DNA of 27,743 nucleotides, taken from IMG/VR virus record IMGVR_UViG_3300021426_000080, positions 1-27,743 of that record; one strand, given 5' to 3'. Made by a program: the position numbers and the translations under genes. Positions 222 to 17,227 of this stretch are shown piece after piece. Numbering within the stretch: the stretch's first letter is position 1; each line of letters opens with the position of its first letter. The DNA comes from a virus. Lineage: Duplodnaviria > Heunggongvirae > Uroviricota > Caudoviricetes. The notes beneath the pieces are model-generated. The model did not search any database and had not been told where the DNA came from. It saw only the letters and a list, made by a program, of their open reading frames with translations.

Positions 222-278
222 TTGCTAAAACTAAATAATAACCAAACAAAACTATACAAGAAATGGAGGAAACTGGCT

Positions 279-635
279 GTGGGACGCCAAAAACTAGGTA
301 AAACTACTCCAACAACGCCGATGTCTCCTCCTGGGCGTACACCTGAGGCAAGAGAGAATCAGCTTATATCATTGGCATACGATCTTGCCGAATCAAGACT
401 GCGCGAAGGAACCGCCACTTCAGCTGAAGTGGTTCATTTTTTAAAACTTGGATCTTTGAAGGAAAAGCAGGAACTTGAGCTTACGAAGAAAAAGATGGAG
501 CTTATGACCGCTAAAACCGAAGCGTTACAATCTGCTAAACGAGTGGAAGAACTTTATGGCGCAGCGATTATGGCCATGCGTCGATATTCTGGTGCCGGAA
601 TGGAGATAGACGATGATGAGGAATACTACGAATGA
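279..635 (+). CDS. Conserved phage protein, candidate small terminase subunit
   Basis: GTG start at 279, 8 nt after GGAGGA (the ORF track start at 222 lacks an RBS). Helical protein (RENQLISLAYDLAESRLREGTATS); first gene at the left end, ATGA-coupled to the HNH gene. The TerS role is positional inference only. Confidence 0.5.
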   Translation: MGRQKLGKTTPTTPMSPPGRTPEARENQLISLAYDLAESRLREGTATSAEVVHFLKLGSLKEKQELELTKKKMELMTAKTEALQSAKRVEELYGAAIMAMRRYSGAGMEIDDDEEYYE

Positions 636-1060
636 ACCCAGTCATTAGAACCTACACAGAATTAATCCAACTTCCAGACTTCATTTCCCGTTATGAGTAT
701 TTACGTCTCGGCGGTAAAGTCGGAGAAGATACTTTTGGCTTCGATCGATGGCTCAATCAAGACTTCTATACTTCAAAGGAATGGCGAAAGTTTAGAAGAG
801 AAATAATCTCACGAGATCTCGGATGTGATCTTGCCTGCAAAGATCGACCGTTCCTGCAAGGTGAGACGGTGATTATTCATCATATAAATCCAATCGGTAA
901 AGGCGATATTTTAAATCATACTGAGTTCCTTATGGATCCTGAGTATGTGATTGCTACATCAAGTAATACACACAATGCGATTCATTATGGTGATCGGTCA
1001 TTACTTAAGTCTTTCGATCCAGTGCTTCGTCTACCAAATGATCAATGCCCTTGGAGATAA
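632..1060 (+). CDS. HNH endonuclease (packaging-associated type)
   Basis: RD.GC..AC motif, then IIHHINPI and NTHNAIHYG; lies in the packaging module like the HK97 gp74-type HNH. Confidence 0.85.
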   Translation: MNPVIRTYTELIQLPDFISRYEYLRLGGKVGEDTFGFDRWLNQDFYTSKEWRKFRREIISRDLGCDLACKDRPFLQGETVIIHHINPIGKGDILNHTEFLMDPEYVIATSSNTHNAIHYGDRSLLKSFDPVLRLPNDQCPWR

Positions 1061-1097
1061 TTACAACCCCCTATAAGAGGGATTGGAGGAAAAAGAA

Positions 1098-1556
1098 ATG
1101 TATTATAGAAATGATGAACTTTACCACCATGGCATTCTAGGCCAGAAATGGGGCGTTAGACGCTATCAGAATCCGGATGGGACTTTAACTACTGAAGGAA
1201 AAGCTCGTTATTTTAATTCTGATGGCACGCTTAATGCCAAAGGAAGAAAGGAAGAAAAGAAACTTTATGCCGATGTTAATAAGAACTGGTATAAAGTACA
1301 TAATGCCGCTGCCAGCAGAAATAACAAAAAAATTGCTGAGATAAATGCAAAATACGATGGCCAAGATTTTGGATATGATTCCGCAACTGATAAATATACC
1401 TCGGATGCTGGAAAAGCATATGTTAAAGAGATTTCAGAATCATGGAAGAAACTGTATAGGGATGAGTTGATGAAGCAGTATCCAGCATCATTACAGCTAG
1501 GGTATGATTATGTAGAAAGTCTTCCAATGTACTGGCAATTTGATGATCTAATTTAA
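1098..1556 (+). CDS. HHG-KWG-tag family protein 1
   Basis: ATG at 1098 after GGAGG. N-terminus MYYRNDELYHHGILGQKWGVRRYQNPDGTLT is shared with four other ORFs in the window. Confidence 0.85.
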   Translation: MYYRNDELYHHGILGQKWGVRRYQNPDGTLTTEGKARYFNSDGTLNAKGRKEEKKLYADVNKNWYKVHNAAASRNNKKIAEINAKYDGQDFGYDSATDKYTSDAGKAYVKEISESWKKLYRDELMKQYPASLQLGYDYVESLPMYWQFDDLI

Positions 1557-1586: not shown

Positions 1587-1928
1587 ATGACCGACAGTAT
1601 TCTTAAAACAATCAGGGGAATGCTCGGCCCTGACGAAGATTATGAGCACTTTGATTCTCAGATCATTCCGCACATCAATGCGGCATTCTCTCGTCTGTGC
1701 CGGCTTGGCGTCGGTCCAGAACTACCATTTAAAATTACCGGACCGAATGAGACGTGGTCTGATTTTATTGATTCCGGTTATCAGGAAGAAGTCAAAGAGT
1801 ATATTTTCTTGAAGGTTAAAACCGTATTTGATACGAGTACTATTAACTCTTCGGTTCTTTCCGCTTATAACGAGCGAATAAAAGAATTGGAATGGGAGAT
1901 GAATGATGTAGCTGAAATTGGTTACTGA
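1587..1928 (+). CDS. Probable head-tail connector (gp6/gp15-like adaptor)
   Basis: 113-aa helical protein (SILKTIRGMLG..FDSQIIPHINAAFSRL..LGVGP..YIFLKVK..FD..ELEW) resembling phage connector proteins; no other connector candidate follows the capsid gene. Confidence 0.6.
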   Translation: MTDSILKTIRGMLGPDEDYEHFDSQIIPHINAAFSRLCRLGVGPELPFKITGPNETWSDFIDSGYQEEVKEYIFLKVKTVFDTSTINSSVLSAYNERIKELEWEMNDVAEIGY

Positions 1929-1934
1929 TTCAAA

Positions 1935-2318
1935 ATGGCTTTTCAATTCTTTAATCCTAATCCGGCAGGAAGATTCGTAGGAGACTGTACGATCCGAGCG
2001 ATCTGCAAATTTCTGAATCAGGATTGGGACACCGTTTATGCCGCCACAACATTTCAAGGCTTTCTGTACAAAGACATGCCTTCCGGAAATGCAACTTGGG
2101 GCGCGTTCCTGTACAAACTCGGATACATCCGAAAATTCATACCAGATAACTGTCTTGGGCGATACTCCGTGAAAGATTTTTGCAGAGATCATCCTCAAGG
2201 CAGTTTTTTATTGGTTTTAGATCAGCATGTTGTAACTGTAGTAGATGGAGATTATTACGATACGTGGGATTCAGGGAGTGAGATGCCCACGTACTATTGG
2301 ACGAAAGGAGAACAATAA
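1935..2318 (+). CDS. Cassette gene 1: putative papain-like cysteine hydrolase
   Basis: NPNP..GDCTIRAI (Cys at a helix start), QHVVTV (His) and YYDTWDS (Asp) in the order of a Cys-His-Asp triad. Confidence 0.55.
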   Translation: MAFQFFNPNPAGRFVGDCTIRAICKFLNQDWDTVYAATTFQGFLYKDMPSGNATWGAFLYKLGYIRKFIPDNCLGRYSVKDFCRDHPQGSFLLVLDQHVVTVVDGDYYDTWDSGSEMPTYYWTKGEQ

Positions 2319-2321
2319 GAA

Positions 2322-2780
2322 ATGAGCGCAACGAATTTTGGAATTAACCCTGCACCAGTTATTCCAACACCGGTTCCTTCTGCAGGAGCCGCGAAAGGAT
2401 TCTCAAGTCTGCCGACAGTAAATCCGGTACCAAACACTCAGCCGATGAATCCCGTTATGAGTGCGGCTGCTGGACCTAAATGTAATATTGTTTGGGTTGA
2501 AAGCATGGACGAAGTTTTGTCATATCCGACTTCTCCGAGCGAAGAGATGTATTTTCAGGATAATAACAACCCTGTGATTTATCGTCGTGAAACGGACGCC
2601 AACGGGAATATTAAAAATCCGATCCATGCCCTTCACTACACAGTTGAAGAACTTCCGTTCGGCCCCGAAGCTCAATTCGTAACGAAAGATGAGCACAAGC
2701 AGCTTTACGATCTTGTCGAGAAACTAGCCGGAACGGTTGACGGAATGAACAATAAGCTTGAAAAGCTTCTGAACGGTTGA
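2322..2780 (+). CDS. Cassette gene 2: Pro-rich N-terminus, small globular core, C-terminal helix
   Basis: AAGGAG RBS; PAPVIPTPVPS..PTVNPVPNTQPMNP, then WVESMDEV..YRRETDANG and FVTKDEHKQL..VEKL. Confidence 0.8.
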   Translation: MSATNFGINPAPVIPTPVPSAGAAKGFSSLPTVNPVPNTQPMNPVMSAAAGPKCNIVWVESMDEVLSYPTSPSEEMYFQDNNNPVIYRRETDANGNIKNPIHALHYTVEELPFGPEAQFVTKDEHKQLYDLVEKLAGTVDGMNNKLEKLLNG

Positions 2781-2793
2781 GGAGGGTAACTTA

Positions 2794-3015
2794 ATGAATC
2801 CATTCTTTAATTCACATCAGCAGAATCAGCAGCAGGGATTCGGATCTGGCTTCGATTTGAATTCTGCTCTTCAGAATCTGGCACGACAGATTGCTCCGAC
2901 CGGGATGTCAGCTGAGCAGATTGTCCGCCAGAAAATTCAAAATAGAGAAATGACCCAAGAGCAATTTAATCAGTTTGCAAGTATCGCAGATCGACTGACC
3001 GGTAGAAAACGCTAG
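2794..3015 (+). CDS. Cassette gene 3: small Q/N-rich protein
   Basis: GAGGAGG RBS; MNPFFNSHQQNQQQ..MTQEQFNQF. Confidence 0.8.
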   Translation: MNPFFNSHQQNQQQGFGSGFDLNSALQNLARQIAPTGMSAEQIVRQKIQNREMTQEQFNQFASIADRLTGRKR

Positions 3016-3025
3016 GTCAGTCTTT

Positions 3026-3084
3026 TATTTATTCGATGTTCACCTCCGAACCTATCTGCAGTACGGCGAGGATCTGAATAAATA
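3026..3084 (+). promoter_or_regulatory. Long imperfect hairpin directly upstream of an RBS
   Basis: TATTTATTC(3026-3034) pairs with GAATAAATA(3076-3084), continued by GAT/ATC and CCTC/GAGG; ends 7 nt before TAGGAGG(3091-3097). Confidence 0.5.
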
Positions 3085-3106
3085 CATTTTTAGGAGGAAT
3101 GAGACA

Positions 3107-3949
3107 ATGTCTTATTCTGAAAACGGTAATGCTAATTTTACTATGCCCGTAAGTCCGATGTACGGTGGCAACGGCGGTTTTGGTAATGGCTTCTTCGGCG
3201 GCGACGCTGCCTGGTGGCTGATTATCCTGCTCCTGTTCGCCAACAACGGTTGGGGCAATGGCTTCGGCTTTGGCGGCGGTATGGGCGGTATGATGCCATT
3301 TATGATTGGTAACCAGCAGAATGCTGATGTCCAGCGTGGTTTCGACCAGTCCGCCATTATGGGCTCTCTGAATGGTATTACCAGCGCTCTCAGCAACGGC
3401 TTCGCAAATGCTGAGATCTCTCGCTGCAATGCTAACACAAATATTCTTCAGGCTCTGAACACCAATCAGGCGGCGACAATTTCAGGCATGAATGGCCTTG
3501 CCATGAATCTTCAGAACTGCTGTTGTGAGAATCGTGCCGGCCTCGCCGACCTCAAGTATACGGTCGCGACAGAGAATTGCGCTGATCGCACTGCCCTGAG
3601 CGAAGGTCTGACCAATATGCTCATGGCAAACAATGCCAATACCCAGGCGATTGTTAATGCTACGAATGCCGGTATTCAGACCGTTATGGATAAGATCTGC
3701 CAGCTTGAGCTTGCTGGTAAAGATCAGCAGATTGCTGCTCTTACGGCTCAGCTGAACGAAGCGAATCGTCTGGCCTCTCAGGCCCAGCAGACTGCAACAA
3801 TTCAGGCCGGTCAGCGTGCTCTGGCGAATGAGATTGAGCAGTATGTTCTGCCGACGGCGCGTCCTGCGTATATCGTTCAGAATCCGAACTGTTGCCCTCA
3901 GAATCAGAACTGCTGTCCTCAGAATACAGGCTGCGGCTGCATGGGTTAA
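3107..3949 (+). CDS. Cassette gene 4: Gly-rich membrane-segment, coiled-coil, Cys-rich protein
   Basis: AGGAGG RBS; GGNGGFGNGFFGG-AAWWLIILLLFA-NNGWGNGFGFGGGMGG, N/A/Q-rich heptad region, NCCCENR, and a C-terminal CCPQNQNCCPQNTGCGCMG (12 Cys in total). Confidence 0.85.
   Translation: MSYSENGNANFTMPVSPMYGGNGGFGNGFFGGDAAWWLIILLLFANNGWGNGFGFGGGMGGMMPFMIGNQQNADVQRGFDQSAIMGSLNGITSALSNGFANAEISRCNANTNILQALNTNQAATISGMNGLAMNLQNCCCENRAGLADLKYTVATENCADRTALSEGLTNMLMANNANTQAIVNATNAGIQTVMDKICQLELAGKDQQIAALTAQLNEANRLASQAQQTATIQAGQRALANEIEQYVLPTARPAYIVQNPNCCPQNQNCCPQNTGCGCMG
3878..3925 (+). repeat. 21-bp tandem repeat (about 2.3 copies) encoding QN(P/Q)NCCP
   Basis: CAGAATCCGAACTGTTGCCCT / CAGAATCAGAACTGCTGTCCT / CAGAAT. 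Confidence 0.85.
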
Positions 3950-3961
3950 GGAGGTGCCGAG

Positions 3962-4414
3962 ATGGCTGAATGGACTAGTGTTGCCGTTCAGACGGTCAAC
4001 CCCGGTGAGGCCATCGTCTTCACCGATACGGCACAGCCTTGCCTGAAGGGTTATATTCTGCACCGTGAGGATAGCGGCGCTTTTCTGATGAAGGGAATCG
4101 ACACCGGTTCCTGCGTTCGGAGATGCTGCTGCAAGCCGGCTACCGTAGACTATATGGTGGATTTCGGCGCTAATATCGCCATTCCTGAAGGAGAGACCGT
4201 TGGACCTATTTCGGTCGCGTTCGCTCTTGATGGAAATACTCTGGCAGGAACCGAAATGGAAGTTACGCCGGCCGCTATTGAACAGTACTTTAATGTCTCC
4301 AGAGCTGCCAACGTGTCCATTTGGAAGGGCTGCTGCCAGACGCTCAGTATTCGTAACACTGGAACTACGCCTATTCTGGTCCAGGCTGCGAATATTGTGT
4401 TCAAGAAGAAGTGA
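3962..4414 (+). CDS. Cassette gene 5: beta-rich Cys-containing protein (possible BclA-C/TNF-like jelly roll)
   Basis: AAGGAGGT RBS; alternating beta-strand pattern (QTVNPGEAIVF, YMVDFGANI, ISVAFALDG, TLSIRN, ILVQAANIVF); 7 Cys. The fold is inferred. Confidence 0.7.
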   Translation: MAEWTSVAVQTVNPGEAIVFTDTAQPCLKGYILHREDSGAFLMKGIDTGSCVRRCCCKPATVDYMVDFGANIAIPEGETVGPISVAFALDGNTLAGTEMEVTPAAIEQYFNVSRAANVSIWKGCCQTLSIRNTGTTPILVQAANIVFKKK

Positions 4415-4428
4415 GGAGGAAATTCAAA

Positions 4429-5028
4429 ATGGAACTGAAAACTGAATCCATGGAAAACATGAAGAAAGTCGTCGCAAAATGCCTCGACGAACTCATGCAG
4501 AAGAATGACCTCTCTCCTGCCGAAACAAAAGCCGCTATTGACGGTCTTCATCTGTATGACGAGCTTTGTTGTCGTATTGAGGAGTGCAAGGCCGAGGAAG
4601 ATAAGAAAGAACCCGGTGAGTATGCCGAGCGTGGATATTCTATGCACGGCGAACCTTACCGTCAGTATCACATCACTTCTTATGGCATGCCCGAGAGGGC
4701 CGTTTACTCGGATCGCAGTTATGGTAACATGAACCGTGGAAGCTATGGAAATCCGAATTACGGCGTTCGTGGCTGGTATCAGAGCAATTCTGATGGCTAC
4801 TCTGGCTATCCCGGATATCCTTCTGAGTTCATGAACCGTAGTTATTGCAGTGATCCGTACTACGGTCCTGAATACTTCGATCGTGGGCGCGGCTACAGTC
4901 GTCACAGCATTAGCGATCGTGCGGTCTCTTGTCTCGAAAAGCTCTTTGATACATCCGCTTCTGATTATGAGAAGCAGGAACTCAAGAAGTATATTTCGAT
5001 GATTCGTGCCGCCGGTATGAACGACTAA
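4429..5028 (+). CDS. Cassette gene 6: helical termini flanking a Tyr/Gly/Ser-rich low-complexity core
   Basis: ATG at 4429 after GAGGAGG plus ATTCAAA; about 18 Tyr between 4618 and 4908; C-terminus YSRHS..EKQELKKYI. Confidence 0.8.
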   Translation: MELKTESMENMKKVVAKCLDELMQKNDLSPAETKAAIDGLHLYDELCCRIEECKAEEDKKEPGEYAERGYSMHGEPYRQYHITSYGMPERAVYSDRSYGNMNRGSYGNPNYGVRGWYQSNSDGYSGYPGYPSEFMNRSYCSDPYYGPEYFDRGRGYSRHSISDRAVSCLEKLFDTSASDYEKQELKKYISMIRAAGMND

Positions 5029-5035
5029 GTAAAAC

Positions 5036-5072
5036 GAGAGAGCCTTGGGGTCATCCTCAGGGCTCTCTTTTT
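5036..5072 (+). terminator. Intrinsic terminator closing the six-gene cassette
   Basis: AGAGAGCCTTGGGG-TCAT-CCTCAGGGCTCTCT stem followed by a T run. Confidence 0.85.
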
Positions 5073-5098
5073 AATATTGCAGGAAGTGAGGGCCTAGC

Positions 5099-5587
5099 AT
5101 GTATTACGAATCAAACAGCAACTATCTGGCCCATCACGGGATTTTGGGTCAGAAATGGGGTGTCCGTCGATTTCAAAATAAAGATGGCACCAGAACTCCT
5201 CTCGGACGAAAAAGAGAGCGAGAGAATAATAAAGTTGACCACGATAAACTTGTAAAGTCTACGGATGCGAAAGAACTTTACAAGCACCGCGATCAACTTT
5301 CAGATAGGGAGCTTCAGGATCGTTTGAATCGTCTTCGTAATGAAGATGCTCTTCGTCAAATGGCGAACGCAAAAAAGAAAGCCAATAACGGACAGAGCAT
5401 GTCAAAAAAAGTATTGGCTAAAGTTGGCGAAAAGACGGCTGAAATAATTGCTGCTGCCGCTGTAGGAGCCGTGCTTGGCACAACCAATGGAAAAGAGCTT
5501 GGCAATAAGATTGCACAAGGAGCTAAGGTAGTTAAAGAGTATGGACCGGATTTTGTCGGCTTCTTCATGGACGATTGGAAGCCATGA
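5099..5587 (+). CDS. HHG-KWG-tag family protein 2
   Basis: MYYESNSNYLAHHGILGQKWGVRRFQNKDGT; helical LSDRELQDRLNRLRNE segment; hydrophobic IIAAAAVGAVLG segment. Confidence 0.85.
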   Translation: MYYESNSNYLAHHGILGQKWGVRRFQNKDGTRTPLGRKRERENNKVDHDKLVKSTDAKELYKHRDQLSDRELQDRLNRLRNEDALRQMANAKKKANNGQSMSKKVLAKVGEKTAEIIAAAAVGAVLGTTNGKELGNKIAQGAKVVKEYGPDFVGFFMDDWKP

Positions 5588-5589
5588 TT

Positions 5590-5952
5590 TTATTCATCGG
5601 TCCAAGGCCTGCTTGAATAATAATCCTCGGCGCCGTAACTTTCATCTGATGGATCTTCGTCATCGTCCCAGTCGATTTCTCCATAACTGTCGGTTTCAAT
5701 ATACATAGGATTGTCCGGATCGGCAAATGGTTCATAATACGGATCAAATTTGTGATCATTATGTTCTAAATCCGATTCATCTTTGCTATCTGTAACAGAA
5801 GACGCAAGACCGGCGACGATTATTGCTGCCGCGCCTCCAGCTACAACAGCAACTCCGGTGCCAATATATTTTAGAACCCGCGTTGCTTTTTCTTTTAAAG
5901 GACGCTTTTCTTTCTTATTGGAATTGTCGTCCTTTTTAAGATGAAATTTCAT
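5590..5952 (-). CDS. Antisense moron: single-pass membrane protein with an acidic C-terminal tail
   Basis: GGGGTG RBS before the ATG at 5952. Basic N-terminus, then IGTGVAVVAGGAAAIIVAGLA, then a D/E/Y-rich tail (WDDDEDPSDESYGAEDYY). The only credible minus-strand gene. Confidence 0.8.
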   Translation of the reverse strand: MKFHLKKDDNSNKKEKRPLKEKATRVLKYIGTGVAVVAGGAAAIIVAGLASSVTDSKDESDLEHNDHKFDPYYEPFADPDNPMYIETDSYGEIDWDDDEDPSDESYGAEDYYSSRPWTDE

Positions 5953-5970
5953 GTGTATCACCCCACTTCA

Positions 5971-5999
5971 ACTATACCACAATTCTTTCATATCTGCAA
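5971..5999 (-). promoter_or_regulatory. SigmaA/sigma70-like promoter with extended -10 driving the antisense moron
   Basis: Minus strand reads TTGCAG (5999-5994), a 17-nt spacer ending TGG, then TATAGT (5976-5971), 19 nt upstream of the ATG. Confidence 0.75.
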
Positions 6000-6019
6000 T
6001 CTCGAGGTGAAAATTCAAA

Positions 6020-7792
6020 ATGGCGTTATCCAATACGGCGGTTCCGACCTATTACGGACAGTTTCGGGACGCTGTATTGAGAGGCGAAATCCCGATCTGC
6101 AGATGGATCGAAATGGAAATGAACCGCATTGACAGATTGATCGCTAATCCAAGGTATTATTATGACGATGCGGTTGTTGAAGGATTTATCGATTACTGCA
6201 ACTCTGAATTGACGCTTACTGATGGCAGCGATCTACATTTGCTCGATACATTTAAGCTTTGGGCGGAAGAAGTATTCGGATGGTATTACTTTGATACTCG
6301 AAGTGTATACGTTCCGAATGAAGACGGGCACGGCGGTTATTATAAGAATGTCCGTTATAAAAATCGTCTTACGAAGAAGCAGTTTCTAATTGTTGGACGA
6401 GGCGCTGCAAAGTCGATGTATGCCTCTGCAATTCAAAGTTATTTCCTAACGGTTGATGCATCGACTACGCATCAGATTACAACGGCTCCGACAATGAAGC
6501 AGGCGGAAGAAGTTCTAAGTCCTATTAAAACTTCAATTGTTCGAGCCAGAGGTCCACTGTTTCAATTTCTAACCGAAGGATCACTTCAGAACACAACTGG
6601 ATCAAAAGCGAATCGTGTAAAACTTGCTTCCACGAAAAAAGGCATTGAAGATTTTCTTACGAATTCTCTTCTTGAAATCAGGCCTTTTAGCATCGATAAA
6701 CTTCAGGGGCTTCGCTGTAAGTGTGCAAGCGTTGACGAATGGCTTTCCGGTGATATTCGAGAAGATCCGATTACCGCTATTGAGCAGGGATGCGCTAAAG
6801 GCGGCATAGATGATTACTTGATTATCGCCACAAGTTCTGAGGGAACTGTTCGAAACGGATCCGGAGACTCTATCAAAATGCAGCTTATGAAGATTCTTCG
6901 AGGCGAGTTTGATGACGATGAGACCGGAGAAGCGTTCGATGACGTGTCTATTTGGTATTATCAGCTTGATGATATTCATGAAGTTGGTGATCCAAGAATG
7001 TGGATTAAAGCGAATCCAAATCTTGGGCATACTGTTACTTACTCGGCGTATCAGAAAGATGTAGCTAAAGCTGAGAATTTTCCAGATCAGAGAAACGAAA
7101 TTCTTGCTAAGCGATTTAATCTTCCTATGGAAGGATTCACATATTTCTTTACATATGAAGAAACACTTCCGCACAGGAAGCGAAACTTCTGGGGTTTGCC
7201 ATGTGCCATTGGCGCGGATCTTTCCCAGGGAGATGACTTCTGTGCATTTACATTTCTTTTTCCGACCCGCGACGGAAAATTCGGAGTCAAAGTTCGAAGT
7301 TATATTACCTCCAAGACAATGTCGGAGCTTCCTTTGGCTATGCATACAAAGTATGAGGATTTTATCAAAGAGGGAAGTTTGATCGTACTTGACGGCGTCG
7401 TGCTCGATATGATGCTCGTATATGATGACTTGGATCAGTTCATTATCGATAATGAATATGATGTTCGTTGCTTTGGGTTCGACCCGTATAACGCAAAAGA
7501 ATTTGTTGAGCGATGGGAAACTGAGAATGGTCCGTTCGGAATTGAAAAAGTAATTCAGGGTGCTAAGACAGAATCTGTTCCTCTCGGAGAGCTTAAGCAT
7601 TACGCAAACGAACGAATGCTCTTATTCGATCAGGAGCTTATGTCTTTCTGTATGGGTAACTGCATTACGATCGAGGATACGAATGGAAATCGTAAGCTTC
7701 TTAAGAAACGAAGAGAGCAAAAGATCGATAACGTGTCTGCAATGATGGACGCATATATTGCATATAAGCATAATAAGGATGCGTTTGAGTAA
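6020..7792 (+). CDS. terL: Terminase large subunit
   Basis: Walker A-like LIVGRGAAKS, Walker B-like ASVDEW, IKANPNLG, nuclease GADLSQGDDF, FGFDPYNA and KIDNVSAMMDA. Confidence 0.95.
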   Translation: MALSNTAVPTYYGQFRDAVLRGEIPICRWIEMEMNRIDRLIANPRYYYDDAVVEGFIDYCNSELTLTDGSDLHLLDTFKLWAEEVFGWYYFDTRSVYVPNEDGHGGYYKNVRYKNRLTKKQFLIVGRGAAKSMYASAIQSYFLTVDASTTHQITTAPTMKQAEEVLSPIKTSIVRARGPLFQFLTEGSLQNTTGSKANRVKLASTKKGIEDFLTNSLLEIRPFSIDKLQGLRCKCASVDEWLSGDIREDPITAIEQGCAKGGIDDYLIIATSSEGTVRNGSGDSIKMQLMKILRGEFDDDETGEAFDDVSIWYYQLDDIHEVGDPRMWIKANPNLGHTVTYSAYQKDVAKAENFPDQRNEILAKRFNLPMEGFTYFFTYEETLPHRKRNFWGLPCAIGADLSQGDDFCAFTFLFPTRDGKFGVKVRSYITSKTMSELPLAMHTKYEDFIKEGSLIVLDGVVLDMMLVYDDLDQFIIDNEYDVRCFGFDPYNAKEFVERWETENGPFGIEKVIQGAKTESVPLGELKHYANERMLLFDQELMSFCMGNCITIEDTNGNRKLLKKRREQKIDNVSAMMDAYIAYKHNKDAFE

Positions 7793-7811: not shown

Positions 7812-9161
7812 ATGGTATATTATGAGTCAAATTACCTTTGCCATTATGGTCTCAAAGGAATGAAATGGGGTCAACGTCGTTGGCAAAATGATGACGGTAC
7901 TTTTAATGAAGCTGGGAAAGCTCGATACTTTAGTAAGTCATCGTCTCATCGTCCAATTAGCGTTATGAAGCTTCAAAATGATCCCGATGTTCAGAAGTGT
8001 AAGGCAGAGCTAAAACAGGCGAAAGTTGCCAAAGATAAAGCATATAAAGCATATAATAAAGCAAGTGCCGGCGGATTAATGACGGATGAAAAAGAAAAAA
8101 AGGCGCTTATTCGTGCCGATAATGCCATTCGATTTGCAAAGCAGGATCTTTCTGATGAAAAAGCCAGAAAACGGATGGAATCTGATGTCAGGCCAAAGTC
8201 TAAGCGAAGGCTTAAACTTGAAGAAGAGTATAAAGCAAAAGGCATGACGGCGGAAGAAGCTGAACTTGCAGCATACAAAAGAGCAAGAACTGAAAAAGCA
8301 TTAAAAATTGCGGCCGGTATTGCAGTAACTGCCGCAGTGGCTTATGGCGCTAGTAAATATGTTGAGAATAATGTTGACAGAGTTATAAAATCCGATGTAT
8401 CATTCAAAAGGGTTGCAACATCTGATACTGCTGGAGTTCAGGATGCTTTTTATGCTACTTTTGGCAATAAAAAGATGGATAATGCAAAGTACGCCGGACT
8501 ATATGCCAAACAACTTAAAGCTGGCAATTATGGGAAAGCTGCTGAGCATGTCTATGAGAAAACAATTAATGCCAAAGAATCCTTTAAAATGGCCTCAACA
8601 AAAAGCGCTAAAGGTGCTTTGCAAGATTTGATGGATAATGATCCTGAATTTAAGAAGGCATTTTCTAAACAGTTTAGATTTAGTCCGGCTATGCAAAAGG
8701 CCATTCAAAATGGTAAAGTCGATAAGAACGTTTATGAATATTTTAATCAGCAACTTGGCGGAAACGCTAAGAATTCTGATGTCGCAAAGAGATACTATGA
8801 CGCATTGTCCAAGAAAGGCTATAATGCCATAATGGATGTAAACGATAAAAAGTTTAGTGGCTTTGGAACTAATATGCCGGTAATAATTTTCAATGCAAAA
8901 GACAAAGTTAATGTCAGCAACGTCCGTGAACTTAGTAATGCTGAGATTAATAAAAAGAATGCTCTTGCAACTTTGGATATTGGAGCCAAAGCAATGGGGC
9001 CACAGTTAGCAATGTATGGAGCAATTGGTGTCGGTATAGTTGGGGCATCTAATGTTTCTAGAAATAAGAAAGAGCAGCAAATAGTTGCTGATTATAAGAA
9101 AGAACATCCAGATTCAAAGTTGTCTTATAAGGATATTGTCAGAAATTATTATAATCAATAG
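7812..9161 (+). CDS. HHG-KWG-tag family protein 3 (449 aa; possible ADP-ribosyltransferase-like C-terminal domain)
   Basis: MVYYESNYLCHYGLKGMKWGQRRWQNDDGT; Lys/Ala-rich helices; hydrophobic IAAGIAVTAAVAYGA; then FKRV..FYATF..GYNAIMDVND..PVIIFN. The ART call is tentative. Confidence 0.8.
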   Translation: MVYYESNYLCHYGLKGMKWGQRRWQNDDGTFNEAGKARYFSKSSSHRPISVMKLQNDPDVQKCKAELKQAKVAKDKAYKAYNKASAGGLMTDEKEKKALIRADNAIRFAKQDLSDEKARKRMESDVRPKSKRRLKLEEEYKAKGMTAEEAELAAYKRARTEKALKIAAGIAVTAAVAYGASKYVENNVDRVIKSDVSFKRVATSDTAGVQDAFYATFGNKKMDNAKYAGLYAKQLKAGNYGKAAEHVYEKTINAKESFKMASTKSAKGALQDLMDNDPEFKKAFSKQFRFSPAMQKAIQNGKVDKNVYEYFNQQLGGNAKNSDVAKRYYDALSKKGYNAIMDVNDKKFSGFGTNMPVIIFNAKDKVNVSNVRELSNAEINKKNALATLDIGAKAMGPQLAMYGAIGVGIVGASNVSRNKKEQQIVADYKKEHPDSKLSYKDIVRNYYNQ

Positions 9162-9172
9162 GAGGTTATTTA

Positions 9173-9382
9173 ATGCATAAGGTGCTATATTCTGTTATAA
9201 CAAAAATCCCAATAATTGGGCCGATTTATGATAGTATCGCAAGACCGAAATTTAGTTCGATGGGACTTTCGGATGGCGAATATGATTTAGCATTATCATT
9301 AATCAAAAAGTATCAGAAGAAGCATCCGAATGAACAAATAACTCTTAGATTGATAAAAAAGCTAATTGAAGACGAAAAATAA
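9173..9382 (+). CDS. Small hypothetical protein (69 aa)
   Basis: Strong AGGAGGT RBS; followed by a terminator; YQKKHPN motif resembles the C-terminal YKKEHPD of the upstream ORF. Confidence 0.75.
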   Translation: MHKVLYSVITKIPIIGPIYDSIARPKFSSMGLSDGEYDLALSLIKKYQKKHPNEQITLRLIKKLIEDEK

Positions 9383-9386
9383 TCCA

Positions 9387-9426
9387 CTAAGAGGGTTGCC
9401 TTAAAAAGCAGCCCTCTTAGATTTTT
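9387..9426 (+). terminator. Intrinsic terminator
   Basis: CTAAGAGGGTTGC / GCAGCCCTCTTAG 13-bp stem followed by ATTTTT. Confidence 0.85.
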
Positions 9427-9441
9427 AAGGAGAGATTCAAA

Positions 9442-10320
9442 ATGATTTATTATGAATCTAATTACCTTTGCCATTATGGCCTCAAAGGAATGAAGTGGGG
9501 ACAACGTCGTTGGCAAAACGAAGATGGCACTTTTAATGAAGCTGGGAAAGCTCGATATTTTGGAAAATCTGCTGGCGGAAATGTACGGCGTGCTCTTGCT
9601 GGCGCATATGGAGTTAGTGAACGTGTTTATAATAAGCTTGGTAATAAAACACTGGCATCAATGAATAAAGCAGCAAAAGAGCAAATGTTGGAAAAGGCGG
9701 CTAAAGCAGATCAAAGAAAAGTTGATCGTCGGCAAGAGAAAATTAATGCCAAAAATCAGAAGACTGCGGAAAAAGATGCTGAGATTAACAAGCGAATTAA
9801 TTCTGCTAAGAATTCTTCCGAAATGGAAAGTGCGATGCAAAAGAAAGTAAAGGAAGATCTAAGAAGAAGCCAAAATCCTTTGAGTAGAACGCTTAATGAT
9901 ATCAGCGGATATAATAATTCTATAGCGAAACAGGTTGTTGATGACGTTTGTAAGAAAATGTACTTTGATGATGTAAAACAGTCAAGATCAAAAATGTCAT
10001 CTGGGCAGAAGTTCTATGATTATTTAACTTCTGGCAGTTCAAATCATGCTAATGAAAAGTATAAAAATGGTGGATATAAGAACCTTAACAAAGAATACGA
10101 GAAGTATAAGTCCGAAGGCGGTATAAAGAAAAGCAAGAAGAATTATGCCGATACTCAGCGGGCTTTGCGGCAGCAAAGAGCTAGACAGGAGCAAGAACGT
10201 CGTCGTGAAGAAGAACGTCGGTATAATGAACAGCAGCGTAAACGACAGGAAGAAATGGACCGTACCGTTAGGCAGATGAATTATTTGACTGGCGTTTACG
10301 AGCGTTCTGGAAATCGTTAA
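9442..10320 (+). CDS. HHG-KWG-tag family protein 4
   Basis: First 40 aa are 38/40 identical to ORF 7812; the remainder is unrelated, basic and helical with a Q/R/E-rich coiled-coil tail. Confidence 0.85.
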   Translation: MIYYESNYLCHYGLKGMKWGQRRWQNEDGTFNEAGKARYFGKSAGGNVRRALAGAYGVSERVYNKLGNKTLASMNKAAKEQMLEKAAKADQRKVDRRQEKINAKNQKTAEKDAEINKRINSAKNSSEMESAMQKKVKEDLRRSQNPLSRTLNDISGYNNSIAKQVVDDVCKKMYFDDVKQSRSKMSSGQKFYDYLTSGSSNHANEKYKNGGYKNLNKEYEKYKSEGGIKKSKKNYADTQRALRQQRARQEQERRREEERRYNEQQRKRQEEMDRTVRQMNYLTGVYERSGNR

Positions 10321-10331
10321 GGAGTTTTAAA

Positions 10332-11054
10332 ATGATCTATTATGAAGACAACTACCTGATGCATCACGGCATTAAAGGCCAGAAGTGGGGCGTAAGGCGA
10401 TATCAGAATCCGGATGGTACTCTTACCGCGGCCGGTAGGTCAAGATATGGGACGCAGGAAGCTTTTGATACTAAGCAAAAGTATAAAGCGGCTCGTAAAG
10501 AGTATAATAAAGCTTTCAATAATGCTTATAATCACAATCATCCTTACAGTCTTTCCAAGAAAAGGAGAGAAGCGTCGGCTGCAAGATGGGAAGAAGCTTT
10601 GAATAAAGCTCAGAATTTGAATAAAGCTCAGAAAGAGTATAAGGTTGCTAAAGGCAATGCGAAACTTGAGAAAACGATTGGCCGCGTAGAAAAAGCTCGC
10701 GATAAGATTCTTTCTGCAAGGGAAAAGAATATGGCCAAGCTTAGCGAGCGTATGGATAAACGGGTTGCTTCCGGACGCACCACACAGATGTATTCTGACT
10801 ATCGTAAAAAAGACTTTGAACTTGGAACAAAAGCTGTAAAAAGCGGCTATGATCGTTACGCCAAAACGATAAAGGACTATAAGTCTATGAAGATTTCTGC
10901 GATTAATGATCCGAGCATTAAGAAGAGCGATGCTTATAAGGAAGCCGGCAGAGCATATCGAAAGCAACTGTTTTCTGATGCGTATTATGGCGGAATGCCG
11001 ATGACAGTTCTTATGTATGCCGGACAGGCGGCGTCCGAACTTGAAGATCGATAA
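10332..11054 (+). CDS. HHG-KWG-tag family protein 5
   Basis: MIYYEDNYLMHHGIKGQKWGVRRYQNPDGTLTAAGRSRY; basic K/A/R-rich helical body; AAGGAG RBS. Confidence 0.85.
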   Translation: MIYYEDNYLMHHGIKGQKWGVRRYQNPDGTLTAAGRSRYGTQEAFDTKQKYKAARKEYNKAFNNAYNHNHPYSLSKKRREASAARWEEALNKAQNLNKAQKEYKVAKGNAKLEKTIGRVEKARDKILSAREKNMAKLSERMDKRVASGRTTQMYSDYRKKDFELGTKAVKSGYDRYAKTIKDYKSMKISAINDPSIKKSDAYKEAGRAYRKQLFSDAYYGGMPMTVLMYAGQAASELEDR

Positions 11055-11069: not shown

Positions 11070-11103
11070 CCGTCTCTTTATTTTTCAAAGAGGCGGATTT
11101 TTT
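11070..11103 (+). terminator. Intrinsic terminator upstream of the portal gene
   Basis: CCGTCTCTTT / AAAGAGGCGG stem followed by ATTTTTT. Confidence 0.8.
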
Positions 11104-11148: not shown

Positions 11149-12438
11149 ATGCCAACATTTATGGAAAGGCTCCAGCATGGCTGGAATGCCTTCATCAATA
11201 ATAAAGATCCGACCGTTACACAGCCGGTATATTCCTACGGTAATTATTCATACCGACAGGATCGGAATCGGATTCGAATTGGAAATGAACGTACGATCAT
11301 TAACTCGATCTACAATCGTATTGCTACTGATTGCTCCTCGATTGATATTAGACACATCAAGACAGATAGCAATGGGAGATTTTCCGATGTTATAGATTCC
11401 GGTTTGAATTCGATATTCAGTCTCGAGGCGAATATTGACCAGGAATCCAGAGCATTCGTTCGTGATATTGTGCAATCGATGCTGGATGAGGGCGTCATTG
11501 CATGTGTTCCAGTTGATACGACAACGAATCCGTATAAAGGCGGATCGTATGATATTAACACAATGCGAACCGGCAAGATTACAAAATGGATGCCGAGGCA
11601 CGTAACGATCGAATTATACAATGACCGGAATGGTCAGAGACAGGAAGTAACTCTTCCAAAAGAAATGGTAGCCATCGTGGAGAATCCGTTCTATTCGGTT
11701 ATGAATGAGCCAAACTCCACCATGCAGAGGTTAATTCGGAAACTGCGGCTCCTTGACGACGTTGATGAGCAGAGCAGTGCTGGAAAACTTGACCTCATTA
11801 TACAGCTTCCGTACGTAATTAAAACGGAGGCACGCCGGGCGCAGGCAGAACAGCGTCGAAAAGACATCGAGATGCAATTAGCCGGTTCCAAGTATGGTAT
11901 TGCGTATACCGACGGAACTGAGCGAGTGATTCAATTAAACCGTTCGTTGGACAACAATTTAATGAAGCAGGTCGAATACCTGACTGAGACACTAATGGGC
12001 CAGCTCGGGATTACGAACGAGATCTTAAATGGTACAGCCAATGAGCAGACGATGATGAATTATTACAATCGCATTGTCGAACCGATTCTTTCTGCAATAA
12101 CCGGCGAATTTAACCGGAAGTTCTTAACAAAGACTGCAAGAACAAAAGGGCAGACTTTCATGTTCTTCCGAGATCCCTTTAAGCTGGTACCGGTGTCTAG
12201 TATTGCCGATATCGCTGACAAATTCACACGTAACGAGATTCTCTCCTCGAATGAGGTCCGCGGCTTGATTGGCTTTAAACCGTCCAAAGATCCGAAAGCT
12301 GATGAATTGAGGAATAAGAATCTTAACCAGTCGTCCAACAATCAGGAAGTTTCTCCGGATGTAACTCCGGAAGGTAATGCTGATGTGGGCGACGATTCTG
12401 TTTTTAAGGAGCAAATTCAAAATGGCAAACAAGTATGA
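11149..12438 (+). CDS. Portal protein
   Basis: 429 aa between TerL and the protease; SIYNRIATD, NPFYSVMNEPNS, GKLDLIIQLPY and NEVRGLIGFKP are typical portal segments; AGGAGG RBS. Confidence 0.92.
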   Translation: MPTFMERLQHGWNAFINNKDPTVTQPVYSYGNYSYRQDRNRIRIGNERTIINSIYNRIATDCSSIDIRHIKTDSNGRFSDVIDSGLNSIFSLEANIDQESRAFVRDIVQSMLDEGVIACVPVDTTTNPYKGGSYDINTMRTGKITKWMPRHVTIELYNDRNGQRQEVTLPKEMVAIVENPFYSVMNEPNSTMQRLIRKLRLLDDVDEQSSAGKLDLIIQLPYVIKTEARRAQAEQRRKDIEMQLAGSKYGIAYTDGTERVIQLNRSLDNNLMKQVEYLTETLMGQLGITNEILNGTANEQTMMNYYNRIVEPILSAITGEFNRKFLTKTARTKGQTFMFFRDPFKLVPVSSIADIADKFTRNEILSSNEVRGLIGFKPSKDPKADELRNKNLNQSSNNQEVSPDVTPEGNADVGDDSVFKEQIQNGKQV

Positions 12439-14335
12439 CTTTAGCGGTTGGGCGACAAAGAATGATCTCCTCTGTGCAGACGGAAGAGTCATTCGTCGCG
12501 ATGCCTTTAAAGACAACGACGGCCAGACAGTTCCGCTGGTGTATCAGCATCAGCATAGCGATCCGGCCAGCATTCTTGGTCATGCTCTTCTTGAGAACCG
12601 GGATGATGGTGTTTATGCGTACTGCAGTTTTAACGATACACCGAATGCGCAGCTTGTTAAATCTGCGGTTCAGCACGGAGACGTTGTGTCGCTGTCGATT
12701 TATGCCAACCGCCTTGTTCAGGAAGGAAAAGACGTACTGCATGGTCTGATCCGAGAAGTGAGCATTGTTCTCGCCGGAGCAAATCCTGGCGCTTACATTG
12801 ACAACCCGATCCTTGTCCATGGAGAGGGAACCGCGGACGAGAGCTATGAGGATCTCCTCGACGAAGCTGTCGTTTATACCGGAGAACCGATTGAACTCTT
12901 CCACGCCGATAAAGATGGTGAGGAAGAAGAAAAGAAACCAGAAGCTGAGGAAAAGAAACCAGAGCCGAAGGAAGAAAAGAATGAAAAGGCGGAAGACGCC
13001 GAGGAGGAATCAAAAATGGCAGATGCAAAAGAAAAGACCGTTAAGGACGTATTTGACGAACTGACGGAAGAGCAGAAGAAAGTTGTTTATTTTATGATCG
13101 GTCAGGCGCTGGAAGACGCTAAGGGCGGCAGCGATGACAAAGACGATGAAGATGAAGATGAAGGAGATACCACTATGAAGCACAATGTGTTTGACAATGA
13201 TGAAGCTTACGGTCCCGTTCTGACCCACGACGATCAGATGGCGATTCTTGACTATGCCAGAAAGAACGGTAGTTTCAAGGACGCCCTTGCCATGTTCGCC
13301 GAAGATCATGGCCTGCAGCATGACGATCTGGCTCCTGTGAGCGGCTTCACCTCTTATCCATCCGGCCAGACTCCGGCCGGCGTAGACGCCCTGTTCCCTG
13401 AGTGGCACGATGTTCGTCCCGGCGCCCCTGAGATCGTTACCAATGACCAGGCTTGGGTTAAGGCTGTTCTGAATAAAGTTCACAGAAGCCCGTTTAGCCG
13501 CATCCGCACCTCCCAGGTTGACCTCCGCGAGATCGAAGGCATCCGTGCCAAGGGCTACCAGAAGGGTAAGGAGAAGACCCTTGCTGACAACTACACCGTT
13601 GCCAAGCGTACCACTGAGCCTCAGACTATTTATGCAAAGAGTGCTCTGAACCGTGATGATGTTGTTGATATTACCGATTTCGACTATGTCGATTACCAGT
13701 ATAAGATCGACCGCATGCAGCTCGAGAAGGAGCTGGCTCGCGCGATTCTGATCGGTGACGGCCGCGATGCTGCTTCTGATGACAAGATTAATGAAGAGCG
13801 TATTCGTCCTATCTGGACTGATAACGGCATCTTCACCATCCGCAAGGTTGTCTCCGCTACTGCTGCGGAGAACGATCCGGGCTTCGGCACGAACTATGTT
13901 TATGCTCAGGCTGTTGAAGAGACTATTCTCGATGCGATGATTGACTATCGTGGTTCCGGCAACATGGATATGTTCTGCGCCCAGCGTTTCTTCAACAAGA
14001 TCCAGCTCGCTAAGGATCTGAACGGTCGTCGTCTGTATAAGGATAAGGCCGAACTCACCTCTACGCTCGGTGTGAACGGCGTTTACAATGTTCCGGAATT
14101 CGAGAACCTGACCCGCACCGAGGGCTCTGGCGCTTCTGCTAAGACCTATCGTCTGCTGGCCATCATCGGTAACCTCAATGATTACAACATCGGTGCAACC
14201 AAGGGCGGCGAGATCACTCACTTCACCGATTTCGACATTGACTTCAACCAGCTCAAGAGCCTGATTGAGACTCGCGTCTCTGGTGCGAATACTCGTATCT
14301 ACAGCTTCATCGTTCTGGAAGAGGAAGTTGCGTAA
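12422..14335 (+). CDS. Fused HK97-type prohead protease / scaffold linker / major capsid protein
   Basis: ATG at 12422 after AAGGAG. Protease motifs YDFSGWAT, VPLVYQHQH, SLSIYA and EVSIVLAGANPGA; acidic E/K/D linker; capsid region from MKHNVFD with ELARAILIGDG. Confidence 0.9.
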   Translation: MANKYDFSGWATKNDLLCADGRVIRRDAFKDNDGQTVPLVYQHQHSDPASILGHALLENRDDGVYAYCSFNDTPNAQLVKSAVQHGDVVSLSIYANRLVQEGKDVLHGLIREVSIVLAGANPGAYIDNPILVHGEGTADESYEDLLDEAVVYTGEPIELFHADKDGEEEEKKPEAEEKKPEPKEEKNEKAEDAEEESKMADAKEKTVKDVFDELTEEQKKVVYFMIGQALEDAKGGSDDKDDEDEDEGDTTMKHNVFDNDEAYGPVLTHDDQMAILDYARKNGSFKDALAMFAEDHGLQHDDLAPVSGFTSYPSGQTPAGVDALFPEWHDVRPGAPEIVTNDQAWVKAVLNKVHRSPFSRIRTSQVDLREIEGIRAKGYQKGKEKTLADNYTVAKRTTEPQTIYAKSALNRDDVVDITDFDYVDYQYKIDRMQLEKELARAILIGDGRDAASDDKINEERIRPIWTDNGIFTIRKVVSATAAENDPGFGTNYVYAQAVEETILDAMIDYRGSGNMDMFCAQRFFNKIQLAKDLNGRRLYKDKAELTSTLGVNGVYNVPEFENLTRTEGSGASAKTYRLLAIIGNLNDYNIGATKGGEITHFTDFDIDFNQLKSLIETRVSGANTRIYSFIVLEEEVA

Positions 14336-15067: not shown

Positions 15068-15763
15068 ATGTCTAAACTAGTATGGGACCAGGTCGGCGAA
15101 AAGCTTTACGAAACTGGTACTAAACAGGGCGTTCTTTATCCTCAGGCCGCAGACGGTACCTATCCGAACGGTGTTGCCTGGAACGGCCTGACTTCGGTTT
15201 CCGAATCTCCCGATGGCGGTGACGCCAATGATATTTACGCCGATGATATTAAATACCTTGTTCTGCGTGGCGTTGAGAACTTCGGCGGCACCATCGAAGC
15301 CTATACGTATCCCCCTGAGTTCGAGGAGTGCGACGGTTCTGCCCAGCTTCTTGCCGGTGTGAATATCGGTCAGCAGCCCCGCAAGACCTTCGGCTTCAGC
15401 TATGTTTCCACCATCGGCAATGACACCGAAATGGACGCGCACGGTTATAAGATTCACCTGATCTACGGTGCTTCCGCTTCTCCGTCCGAGCGTTCTTATG
15501 AGACGGTCAACGATAGTCCGGAACCGATTCAGTTCAGCTGGGAGTTCACGACCGTTCCTGTCAACGTGACCGGTCACAAGGCTACCGCTCTGCTTACGAT
15601 CGATTCGACTAAGTTCCCGCCCCAGCAGGATGGCAAAAAGAATGTTAAGCTTAAGGCAATTGAAGACGTTCTTTACGGAACTGACGGCGAAGGTTCCAGC
15701 GAGGGAACAGCACCAAGACTCCCGCTGCCGGACGAAGTGCTCGATATTCTCACCCGCACTTAA
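15068..15763 (+). CDS. Major tail protein
   Basis: KLVWDQVGEKLYETG..AWNGLT..YADDIKY..TIEAYTYP..FSWEFTT are typical siphovirus tail-tube motifs; biased codon usage. Confidence 0.92.
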   Translation: MSKLVWDQVGEKLYETGTKQGVLYPQAADGTYPNGVAWNGLTSVSESPDGGDANDIYADDIKYLVLRGVENFGGTIEAYTYPPEFEECDGSAQLLAGVNIGQQPRKTFGFSYVSTIGNDTEMDAHGYKIHLIYGASASPSERSYETVNDSPEPIQFSWEFTTVPVNVTGHKATALLTIDSTKFPPQQDGKKNVKLKAIEDVLYGTDGEGSSEGTAPRLPLPDEVLDILTRT

Positions 15764-15774: not shown

Positions 15775-15809
15775 GGGAGGCTGTCTGAAATACGGCAGCC
15801 TCTCTTTTT
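15775..15809 (+). terminator. Intrinsic terminator after the major tail gene
   Basis: GGGAGGCTGTC / GGCAGCCTCTC stem followed by TTTTT. Confidence 0.85.
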
Positions 15810-16849: not shown

Positions 16850-17227
16850 ATGGTTACGGTCAAGGTTAGTGGCAGTTATCGAAAAACCAGATCCTTTTTA
16901 ACAAAAGCAAAGAATTTAAAATTAGATTCAATTCTAAGAAAGTACGGAGAACAAGGGGTCAAGGCTTTGATGAACGCGACTCCGAAAGATACCGGAAAAA
17001 CGGCAAATTCTTGGGTGTATGAGATCCGCCACGAATCGAACGGGCCGACTCTTATCTGGAAAAATACTAATATTGTTGACGGTGTATCAATCGCGGTTAT
17101 TTTGCAGTATGGGCATGGTACTGCAAATGGAGGATATGTGCAGGGAAGAGACTATATTAACCCTGCACTTCGTCCGATATTTGATCAGATTGCAAAATCC
17201 GCCTGGAAGGAGGTCACGGAATCATGA
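16850..17227 (+). CDS. HK97 gp10-like tail component
   Basis: ATPKDTGKTANSW and LQYGHGT..YVQGRDYINPAL match the gp10-like pattern. Confidence 0.75.
   Translation: MVTVKVSGSYRKTRSFLTKAKNLKLDSILRKYGEQGVKALMNATPKDTGKTANSWVYEIRHESNGPTLIWKNTNIVDGVSIAVILQYGHGTANGGYVQGRDYINPALRPIFDQIAKSAWKEVTES

Follow-up and report, generated by a model that had tools for sequence, protein, structure and literature searches.

A horizontally exchanged six-gene cassette in tailed phages of gut and rumen Bacillota, with a BclA-like jelly roll and a predicted cysteine peptidase

What does a tailed phage gain from a compact block of six genes set among its packaging genes? The question is raised by the first 27.7 kb (27,743 nucleotides, hereafter the window) of the 94.8-kb IMG/VR virus record IMGVR_UViG_3300021426_000080, in which the genes g1 to g6 lie between a connector-family gene and the large terminase gene (Table 1). 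A sequence-only reading had taken these genes for a cassette that might build one structure, and had offered a surface or spore-coat-like appendage, a membrane-active complex and an intracellular compartment as candidates. Comparison with related loci shows the cassette to be a conserved accessory module, six genes long, which tailed phages of gut and rumen Bacillota exchange horizontally as a unit. Its products include a confidently modelled jelly roll, a predicted cysteine peptidase and a Cys-rich helical protein, for which a role at the cell envelope is tentatively favoured.

Loci for comparison were gathered through g5 and examined with per-gene profiles. They comprise 95 loci from IMG/VR, two annotated phages and 75 loci from species-representative bacterial genomes (numbered with the prefix L), a collection that cannot show how often g1 to g4 occur without g5. 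The number of IMG/VR stretches with a relative of g5 is at least 560. Where the flanking sequence was long enough to judge, in 115 loci, the complete set of six was detected in 94 and the order was colinear in 112, in keeping with the expectation that the six travel together. In each of these 115 loci g5 is accompanied by g4, which lies no more than 500 nt upstream in 95; g6 is found 3' of g5 in 91 IMG/VR loci, and g3, traced with an iterated hidden Markov model, is conserved in 81 loci. The loci without a detected g1, g3 or g6 are the most distant ones, where profiles built from closer relatives probably lose sensitivity. Exchange of the cassette is evident in loci L006-L015, where the six cassette proteins are 80-98% identical to those of the window (93-97% for g5, and 93-98% for the cassette overall) whereas the flanking connector, HNH and terminase proteins share only 55-67% identity with their window counterparts. 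This contrast marks an exchanged unit bordered by g1 and g6. That the cassette remains intact while its surroundings are shuffled points to strong selection for a joint function.

The cassette has been found in at least four genomic contexts. Its position between the connector and terminase genes is that of the window lineage. In a second context (L039, L050, L051 and L100), it lies upstream of a contiguous set of genes for the 137-aa protein, HNH endonuclease, connector and terminase. The packaging genes are thus unbroken in these relatives and split by the cassette in the window lineage, which bears out its description as an insertion in the packaging module. In a third context, the cassette directly follows holin-endolysin genes (Ceridwen, Dulem virus 33, L143, L157, L159, L162 and L166), and an integrase (12-13 loci) or a repressor (5 loci) adjoins it on the other strand. 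In the fourth, it separates portal or minor head protein genes from scaffold or capsid genes (the L117 group). The suggestion that similar gene runs recur as hypothetical proteins in gut and rumen phages was sound, as they occur, for example, in the Butyrivibrio phage Ceridwen, in lemur Dulem viruses and in human faecal phages. A single match on a plasmid was obtained, in a Vescimonas megaplasmid, and a nucleotide search of phage records returned nothing useful.

The cassette also receives genes. Three of its junctions, g3/g4, g4/g5 and g1/g2, are insertion hot spots. The g3/g4 junction holds inserts of 1-5 kb in relatives, among them lysin and holin-like genes (L009 and L021), open reading frames (ORFs) resembling virion, neck or head-fibre proteins (L014, L023 and L026) and an endonuclease gene (Dulem virus 33). 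A cytosine methyltransferase-like ORF, judged by eye, separates g4 from g5 in L117, and a holin-like gene separates g1 from g2 in L146. In the sister phage L009, the lysis module, consisting of a 526-aa lysin and two holin-like genes, stands between g3 and g4 (positions 3848-6391) rather than after the tail genes. Its counterpart in the genome of the window phage lies at 36632-39159, and the two lysins are 93% identical. Here a complete functional module has clearly moved into the internal hot spot of the cassette.

Within the window, the description of six co-oriented, tightly spaced genes on the plus strand holds, and independent gene callers give the same six genes in other assemblies, none with a Pfam match. 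This agreement, the number of relatives of g5 and the size of the g4 family set the genes well apart from chance ORFs. The first gene starts 6 nt past the upstream late gene; the following gaps measure 3, 13, 91 and 12 nt, and g5 and g6 overlap. Both g1 and g6 have the start motif of head genes, ATTCAAAATG. For g6, the more likely start is ATG 4429, predicted from the GAGGAGG that precedes it and from its place within ATTCAAAATG. The strong terminator said to end the cassette was likewise recovered, with a 15-bp stem and T run, a folding energy of -27.1 kcal/mol and z = -5.5 (none of 200 shuffles was equally stable). A hairpin at 2993-3022, after g3, was considered as an internal terminator and rejected as not significant (z -1.7). 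The labels given from composition (Pro for g2, Q/N for g3, Gly/Cys for g4, beta/Cys for g5 and Tyr for g6) are correct by residue counts or by an all-beta model. Long ORFs also run antisense to g4-g6 on the minus strand, at 3482-4063 (193 aa) and 4150-4905 (251 aa). They are best explained by the strong codon bias of g4-g6, which contain 0-0.4 TTA, CTA or TCA codons per 100, and are probably not genes.

Table 1. Positions of the cassette, its neighbours and other features in the window.
Feature	Position	Strand	Remarks
137-aa protein	222-635	+	phrog_4259
HNH endonuclease	632-1060	+	
DUF7211-tagged protein	1083-1556	+	
Connector-family protein	1587-1928	+	PF24829 E 1e-25; phrog_4247 'virion structural protein'
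Six-gene cassette g1-g6	1935-5028	+	
g1	1935-2318	+	127 aa
g2	2322-2780	+	152 aa
g3	2794-3015	+	73 aa
Spacer g3-g4	3016-3106		91 nt; insertion hot spot in relatives
g4	3107-3949	+	280 aa
g5	3962-4414	+	150 aa
g6	ORF open from GTG 4411 to 5028; likelier ATG 4429-5028	+	205 aa; ~199 aa from the likelier start
Intrinsic terminator closing the cassette	5036-5079 (stem 5036-5069)	+	15-bp stem, 8 G-C pairs, 4-nt loop, T run
Second DUF7211 protein	5099-5587	+	
123-aa ORF	5590-5961	minus	
Large terminase	6020-7792	+	
Portal	11149-12438	+	
Protease-capsid fusion	12377-14335	+	
Major tail protein	15068-15763	+	
Tape measure	17224-22827	+	
DUF7211-motif proteins	1083-1556, 5099-5587, 7812-9161, 9442-10320, 10332-11054		
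ATTCAAAATG sites	1580, 1928, 4422, 6013, 7805, 8703, 9435, 12415, 14379	+	

The product of g5 (phrog_20016; 7 Cys) can be assigned a fold confidently from its AlphaFold2 (AF2) model, a ten-stranded, full-length C1q/TNF jelly roll with a predicted local distance difference test (pLDDT) score of 91.1 and a predicted template modelling score (pTM) of 0.84. As modelled, it is a stand-alone domain whose nearest relatives are the C-terminal domain of BclA and ExsF. The structure matches are the F-ENA tip protein F-BclA (9h38; Z 17.2, root-mean-square deviation (rmsd) 1.6 Å over 122 residues), BclA (1wck; Z 16.4), EDA (Z 15.0) and ExsFA (7r1m; Z 14.2). Foldseek gives E 3e-7 with probability 1.00, and the nearest named clusters among the Atlas matches are C-terminal heads of collagen-family proteins of Bacillota (TM 0.81). 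The fold bears out the trimer-type head domain that had been proposed from the sequence. Sequence comparison recovers none of this: g5 matches no Pfam family at E up to 0.1, including BclA_C (PF18573), and a 45-sequence profile finds no relative of known structure in the PDB.

Compared with the exosporium proteins BclA, F-BclA and ExsF (BxpB) of the Bacillus cereus group (PDB 1wck, 9h38, 7r1m and 9h3d), g5 has the same jelly roll over its whole length (rmsd 1.6-2.2 Å over 122-129 residues), and ExsF, like g5, consists of a single free-standing domain with about 150 residues. ExsF docks the short N-terminal leader of the stalk protein BclA, which is proteolytically trimmed (PMC12357932). By analogy, this arrangement of docking and trimming mirrors the gene set g1, g4 and g5. 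In contrast, the identity between g5 and these proteins is only 10-14%, the cassette has neither a collagen stalk nor an exosporium leader, and g5 is encoded by phages, some of which infect non-sporulating hosts.

A cargo that modifies host spores with a coat- or exosporium-like layer could draw on the nearness of g5 to BclA, F-BclA and ExsF, and Cys-rich and Tyr-rich partners recall coat proteins. It is nevertheless a most improbable reading, largely refuted by host range. Bacterial carriers include Selenomonadaceae, Selenomonas sp. AE3005, Lachnospiraceae, Oscillospiraceae, Eubacterium ruminantium ATCC 17233 and Lachnospira intestinalis, although these names are record titles of metagenome bins and may be wrong; the cultured carrier phage Ceridwen infects Butyrivibrio fibrisolvens. 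Several of these hosts (Butyrivibrio, Selenomonadaceae, Eubacterium ruminantium and Lachnospira) do not sporulate, which makes a role in the spore coat unlikely despite the fold of g5, and on the same carriers no link to spore-forming hosts is supported. The family searches agree: g4 does not match the exosporium leader model TIGR03720 (NCBIfam, E up to 1) and has an N-terminal peptide of its own, and an NCBIfam scan of the cassette proteins gave no match, including to sporulation families.

The candidate partner of g5 is the Gly/Asn-rich product of g4 (phrog_16490, match E 1.8e-35). Its family, in which no cluster carries a name or a Pfam match, counts at least 7,980 clusters at 90% identity; g4 itself belongs to no known family in Pfam or NCBIfam. 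It is 12% Gly and contains 12 Cys, clustered as CCC at 138-140, C158, C198 and a C-terminal CC...GCGC. Conservation extends over the Gly/aromatic-rich flanks of a hydrophobic core, the motifs DVQRGFDQ, CCC and ENCADR, a long helical region and a Pro-containing tail, NPxPxPAYVVQNPNCC...GCGC. The N-terminal peptide is also conserved, in two variants (..SAADVAAV.. or ..MPVxPM..) that switch between relatives. The hydrophobic core spans residues 34-46, with a Kyte-Doolittle 13-residue maximum of 2.08, and an AF2 monomer model (pLDDT 56) places helices at 35-45, 82-141 and 151-247; the earlier description of a hydrophobic segment followed by long helices thus agrees with hydropathy and model. A predicted complex of three g5 chains with g4 residues 75-280 scored 0.01, from a construct that omitted the conserved N-terminal peptide, the most likely docking element for g5. 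A covariation between g4 C198 and the C27/CxC cysteines of g5 (127 concordant and 16 discordant loci) was set aside, since it comes down to 2-5 phylogenetically independent pairs and is not evidence. No column of g5 is associated with the g4 N-terminal variant.

In its predicted layout, g4 resembles an i-spanin of the Rz type: a candidate N-terminal hydrophobic anchor, two long helices modelled at low confidence with a short linker between them, conserved Cys and a C-terminal end that contains Pro; the cassette, moreover, often lies 3' of holin-endolysin genes. Unlike an i-spanin, g4 is about twice as long, travels with five other genes and occurs mostly in monoderm hosts. It has no sequence similarity to any lysis-labelled PHROG, and the lipoprotein partner of a spanin pair is missing, none of the six products having a signal- or lipobox-like N-terminus.

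Codon usage suggests that g4, g5 and g6 are made in amounts like those of major structural proteins. Codon preference, expressed as a log-likelihood ratio per codon for likeness to the protease-capsid and major tail genes, is +0.18 for g4, +0.14 for g5 and +0.16 for g6, while all other genes of the window outside the two reference sets, among them g1-g3, portal and the connector gene, score -0.13 to -0.38. In L117, a prophage of a Lachnospiraceae isolate, g3 and g4 rank top, and in Ceridwen g4 is top among the non-reference genes. Third-position GC is higher in g4-g6 than in the packaging genes in 48 of 54 loci.

Codon use like that of capsid and tail tube would also suit the main rival explanation, a virion fibre or head decoration in which a trimeric shaft built of g4 and g2 is carried on the capsid or neck, g5 is the distal knob and g1 matures the assembly. 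Phage TNF-like knobs (PRD1 P5, the Sf6 needle knob and the cyanophage A-1(L) short tail fibre) and trimeric head fibres such as phi29 gp8.5 place a trimer-type beta-sandwich head beside a coiled-coil shaft, as may hold for g5 and g4; collagen-C1q phage proteins exist, and coiled-coil and beta-layer-like motifs occur in cassette proteins. The knobs that tip phage fibres do match g5 (the cyanophage short tail fibre 8ke9 at Z 13.1, PRD1 P5 at Z 10 and the Sf6 knob at Z 9.2), but more weakly (Z 9-13) than BclA does, and in them head and shaft are one virion polypeptide rather than the products of separate genes such as g5 and g4. The putative g4 shaft also differs in its hydrophobic segment and Cys clusters. 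The cassette is found inside the head or packaging clusters of three different backbones, and its g3/g4 hot spot has taken up the head-fibre-, neck- and virion-protein-like ORFs described above. Yet the head modules that it serves are unrelated, a protease-capsid fusion in the window and a set of portal, minor head, scaffold and capsid genes in L117 and Ceridwen, which is unusual for a part that docks on a lattice. Conservation of g5 equals or exceeds that of the terminase, unlike receptor-binding tips; the hydrophobic Gly-rich segment, three low-complexity partners and private terminator are atypical of fibres, and no structure-labelled PHROG is matched. A fibre or decoration is accordingly judged possible but somewhat unlikely.

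The product of g1 (phrog_3754, match E 3.5e-26) is predicted from its sequence to be a cysteine peptidase. Nine residues are invariant among 45 relatives (N7, N9, D17, C18, R21, W31, F82, H98 and D109), and the family comprises 3,658 clusters at 50% identity. Of the papain-like label given to it earlier, the Cys18/His98/Asp109 pattern stands and is the whole basis of the name: no Pfam match was obtained with the single protein, the 45 members or ten longer relatives, and none in a PDB profile search. The best likeness is to peptidase C39, a domain of about 130 residues in which Cys lies near residue 18, His about 80 residues later and Asp 11-14 after that. The g1 residues share this order and spacing and fall on the C39 triad in a relaxed profile alignment. 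Unlike C39, g1 is not fused to a transporter, and no significant sequence or profile match links the two (hhalign probability 0.2%, with 5 and 9 C39 domains from five and 41 genomes). Stand-alone copies are encoded in the early regions of Tsamsa-like phages of Bacillus, annotated as 'putative peptidase', and in Geobacillus phage GBK2. Other forms (among P0199, P0211 and P0259) are tandem pairs or follow an N-terminal membrane helix; the latter form has a second g1-like copy without the catalytic Cys.

In two fusion proteins, P0173 and P0212, g2 stands behind g1, which ties the two genes functionally. The g2 protein has a Pro-rich N-terminal third (Pro 21% in residues 1-52), a small conserved domain and a C-terminal helix. 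Alignment and conservation profile define the domain by the motif WV.G...A..YP..PG...D...FYIK.TD.NG. The C-terminal VTKxEF..L stretch bears a weak likeness to the beta-layer motif seen in trimeric coiled coils (PDB 5apz and 5apw; E 0.45-0.6), and a PDB sequence search with g2 otherwise returned only coiled-coil noise.

In a third explanation, g1 would trim the N-terminal peptide from g4 and free the Gly/Trp-rich hydrophobic segment to insert into a membrane, in the manner of a leader-processed bacteriocin or, with g5 as head, of a viral fusion subunit that has been primed. The double-glycine leader consensus is LSxxELxxIxGG, which one N-terminal variant of g4 (LSAADVAAVTGG/GN) resembles. From its leader through the hydrophobic peptide and the two long helices to the Cys-rich tail, the layout of g4 recalls class I fusion subunits and i-spanins, and the C39-like order of the g1 triad points the same way. 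Against these likenesses stand the negligible C39 profile probability and the lack of Pfam and PDB matches, a second g4 variant (MVMPVSPM) that lacks the leader-like pattern, variation at the putative cleavage-site residues, and the occurrence of g1 alone in Bacillus phages without g4. A covariation of the g4 variant with g1, in which first-pass scores had flagged positions 19 and 95-97 in the flanks of the active site, did not survive controls: set against control traits, mutual information showed no enrichment near the active site (p 0.67), and it was rejected. Protease-activated membrane insertion is therefore held to be quite improbable.

The remaining products, g3 and g6, are both low in complexity and conserved, and both contain short ordered motifs. 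Gln makes up 18% and Asn 10% of g3, which ends in a conserved C-terminal motif, MTQxQFNQ, and matches no family in Pfam, PHROG or NCBIfam. In g6, helical ends enclose a Tyr/Gly/Ser/Arg-rich middle (Tyr 17% in residues 62-170), and conservation is found at both ends and in the motif GYSxHS..DR...LE.MMD. None of the six proteins has a signal peptide-like N-terminus, so that a classical secreted appendage is not indicated and the surface-appendage candidate loses ground.

In the phage that carries the window, the lysis genes are placed at 36.6-39.2 kb and a tyrosine integrase at 42.3 kb, and the integrase counts towards a fourth explanation: the cassette could be lysogenic-conversion cargo, expressed from the prophage, whose membrane structure excludes superinfecting phages or alters the cell surface. 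The mobility of the cassette between phages and its own terminator would suit such cargo, as would the opposite-strand integrases and repressors that adjoin it. In the window, however, the cassette shares the orientation of the late genes and is translationally packed with them, no promoter would fit before g1, and its codon use is like that of major structural genes. PADLOC defence models gave no match beyond a chance-level coiled-coil hit of g4 to PbeC (E 0.014). Known exclusion systems consist of one or two small proteins. Furthermore, Ceridwen carries the cassette, has no integrase and was observed in the lytic cycle only (PMC7372960), which argues against a purely lysogenic function. Conversion cargo is thus considered unlikely.

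The explanation favoured here, tentatively and with ample room for error, is an abundant, late-made stalk-and-knob assembly that acts at the cell envelope around lysis. Late in infection, g4, g5 and g6 would be produced abundantly. The g4 product would form a long, probably oligomeric coiled-coil stalk and be held in or on the cytoplasmic membrane by its short hydrophobic segment with Gly/Trp flanks. A C1q/BclA-type trimer of g5 would be the head that partners g4 and, by analogy with ExsF and BclA, may bind the conserved g4 N-terminal peptide. The putative Cys-His-Asp peptidase g1 would work with g2 to process or cross-link a component, and the low-complexity g3 and g6 may be matrix or adaptor partners. 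The assembly would work at the envelope near the time of lysis, and not in spores. Its link to lysis is one of position only: L009, L021 and L146 have lysis genes within the cassette, and elsewhere the cassette lies 3' of endolysin and holin genes.

Several points weigh against this stalk-and-knob assembly. At about 12 residues, and with a 19-residue hydropathy of 1.47, the hydrophobic core of g4 is borderline for a membrane span. As no product has a signal peptide, g5 and the g4 rod must lie on the same, probably cytoplasmic, side, which makes a role in breaking the envelope hard to picture. A spanin-like step is not needed in monoderm hosts; among the carriers, Selenomonadaceae are diderm. 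The position after lysis genes is also a classical site of unrelated cargo genes, and in many lineages the cassette is found in the midst of head or packaging genes instead. The window genome alone shows a strong codon signal, which is weaker in others, and both the interaction of g4 with g5 and the activity of g1 are predictions.

A more speculative extension of the stalk-and-knob assembly, possible but doubtful, is an abundant, Cys-rich protein structure of a new kind in infected strict anaerobes, in which g4 is the membrane-anchored rod, a BclA-like trimer of g5 the cap, the low-complexity g2, g3 and g6 the matrix and g1 the maturase. It might be a machine for lysis or envelope remodelling, or a matrix that becomes cross-linked when virions pass out of the anoxic gut. 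For a phage, the parts of the cassette are unusual: a head of BclA/ExsF type, a rod stapled by Cys, and partners that are prion-like. Few gene blocks are commoner in phages of gut and rumen Bacillota than this cassette. Of its proteins, four out of six have no Pfam family and no name in any family library, and no paper describing it or a BclA-like phage cassette was found in the literature. Butyrivibrio fibrisolvens DSM 3071 and phage Ceridwen offer a culturable pair. Once known, the function would annotate thousands of viral genomes and may expose a new infection step in anaerobes.

The surroundings of the cassette hold further observations. At the start of the packaging module, the connector gene stands with the HNH and terminase genes, distant from other head-tail joining genes, and this placement is kept in about 50 related loci. 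An N-terminal DUF7211 motif (of the HHGILGQKWGVRR type) is common to five proteins with unrelated bodies. A gene of this type follows g6 on its 3' side in 55 related loci and is not conserved with the cassette, as it shows 35-77% identity where the cassette exceeds 90%. The 123-aa ORF is the sole sizeable minus-strand ORF of the region; it encodes a hydrophobic Gly/Ala-rich helix with an acidic tail and converges on the DUF7211 gene just 5' of the terminase gene.

The 10-mer ATTCAAAATG occurs nine times on the plus strand of the window, against 0.2 copies expected. At 1580, 1928, 4422, 6013, 7805 and 9435, a listed or proposed gene begins with its ATG, namely the connector, g1, g6, terminase and two DUF7211 genes. 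Listed ORFs contain or closely follow the remaining three sites, which may serve as alternative starts for the capsid fusion and for a gene at 14400. The 10-mer may be a translation-start context or a module-boundary sequence for recombination. Strong terminator-like hairpins also occur inside the structural region, at 9387-9420 (after the small gene 9173-9382), 11070-11096 (before the portal gene) and 15775-15804 (after the major tail gene), which suggests that the late region is split into several transcription units.

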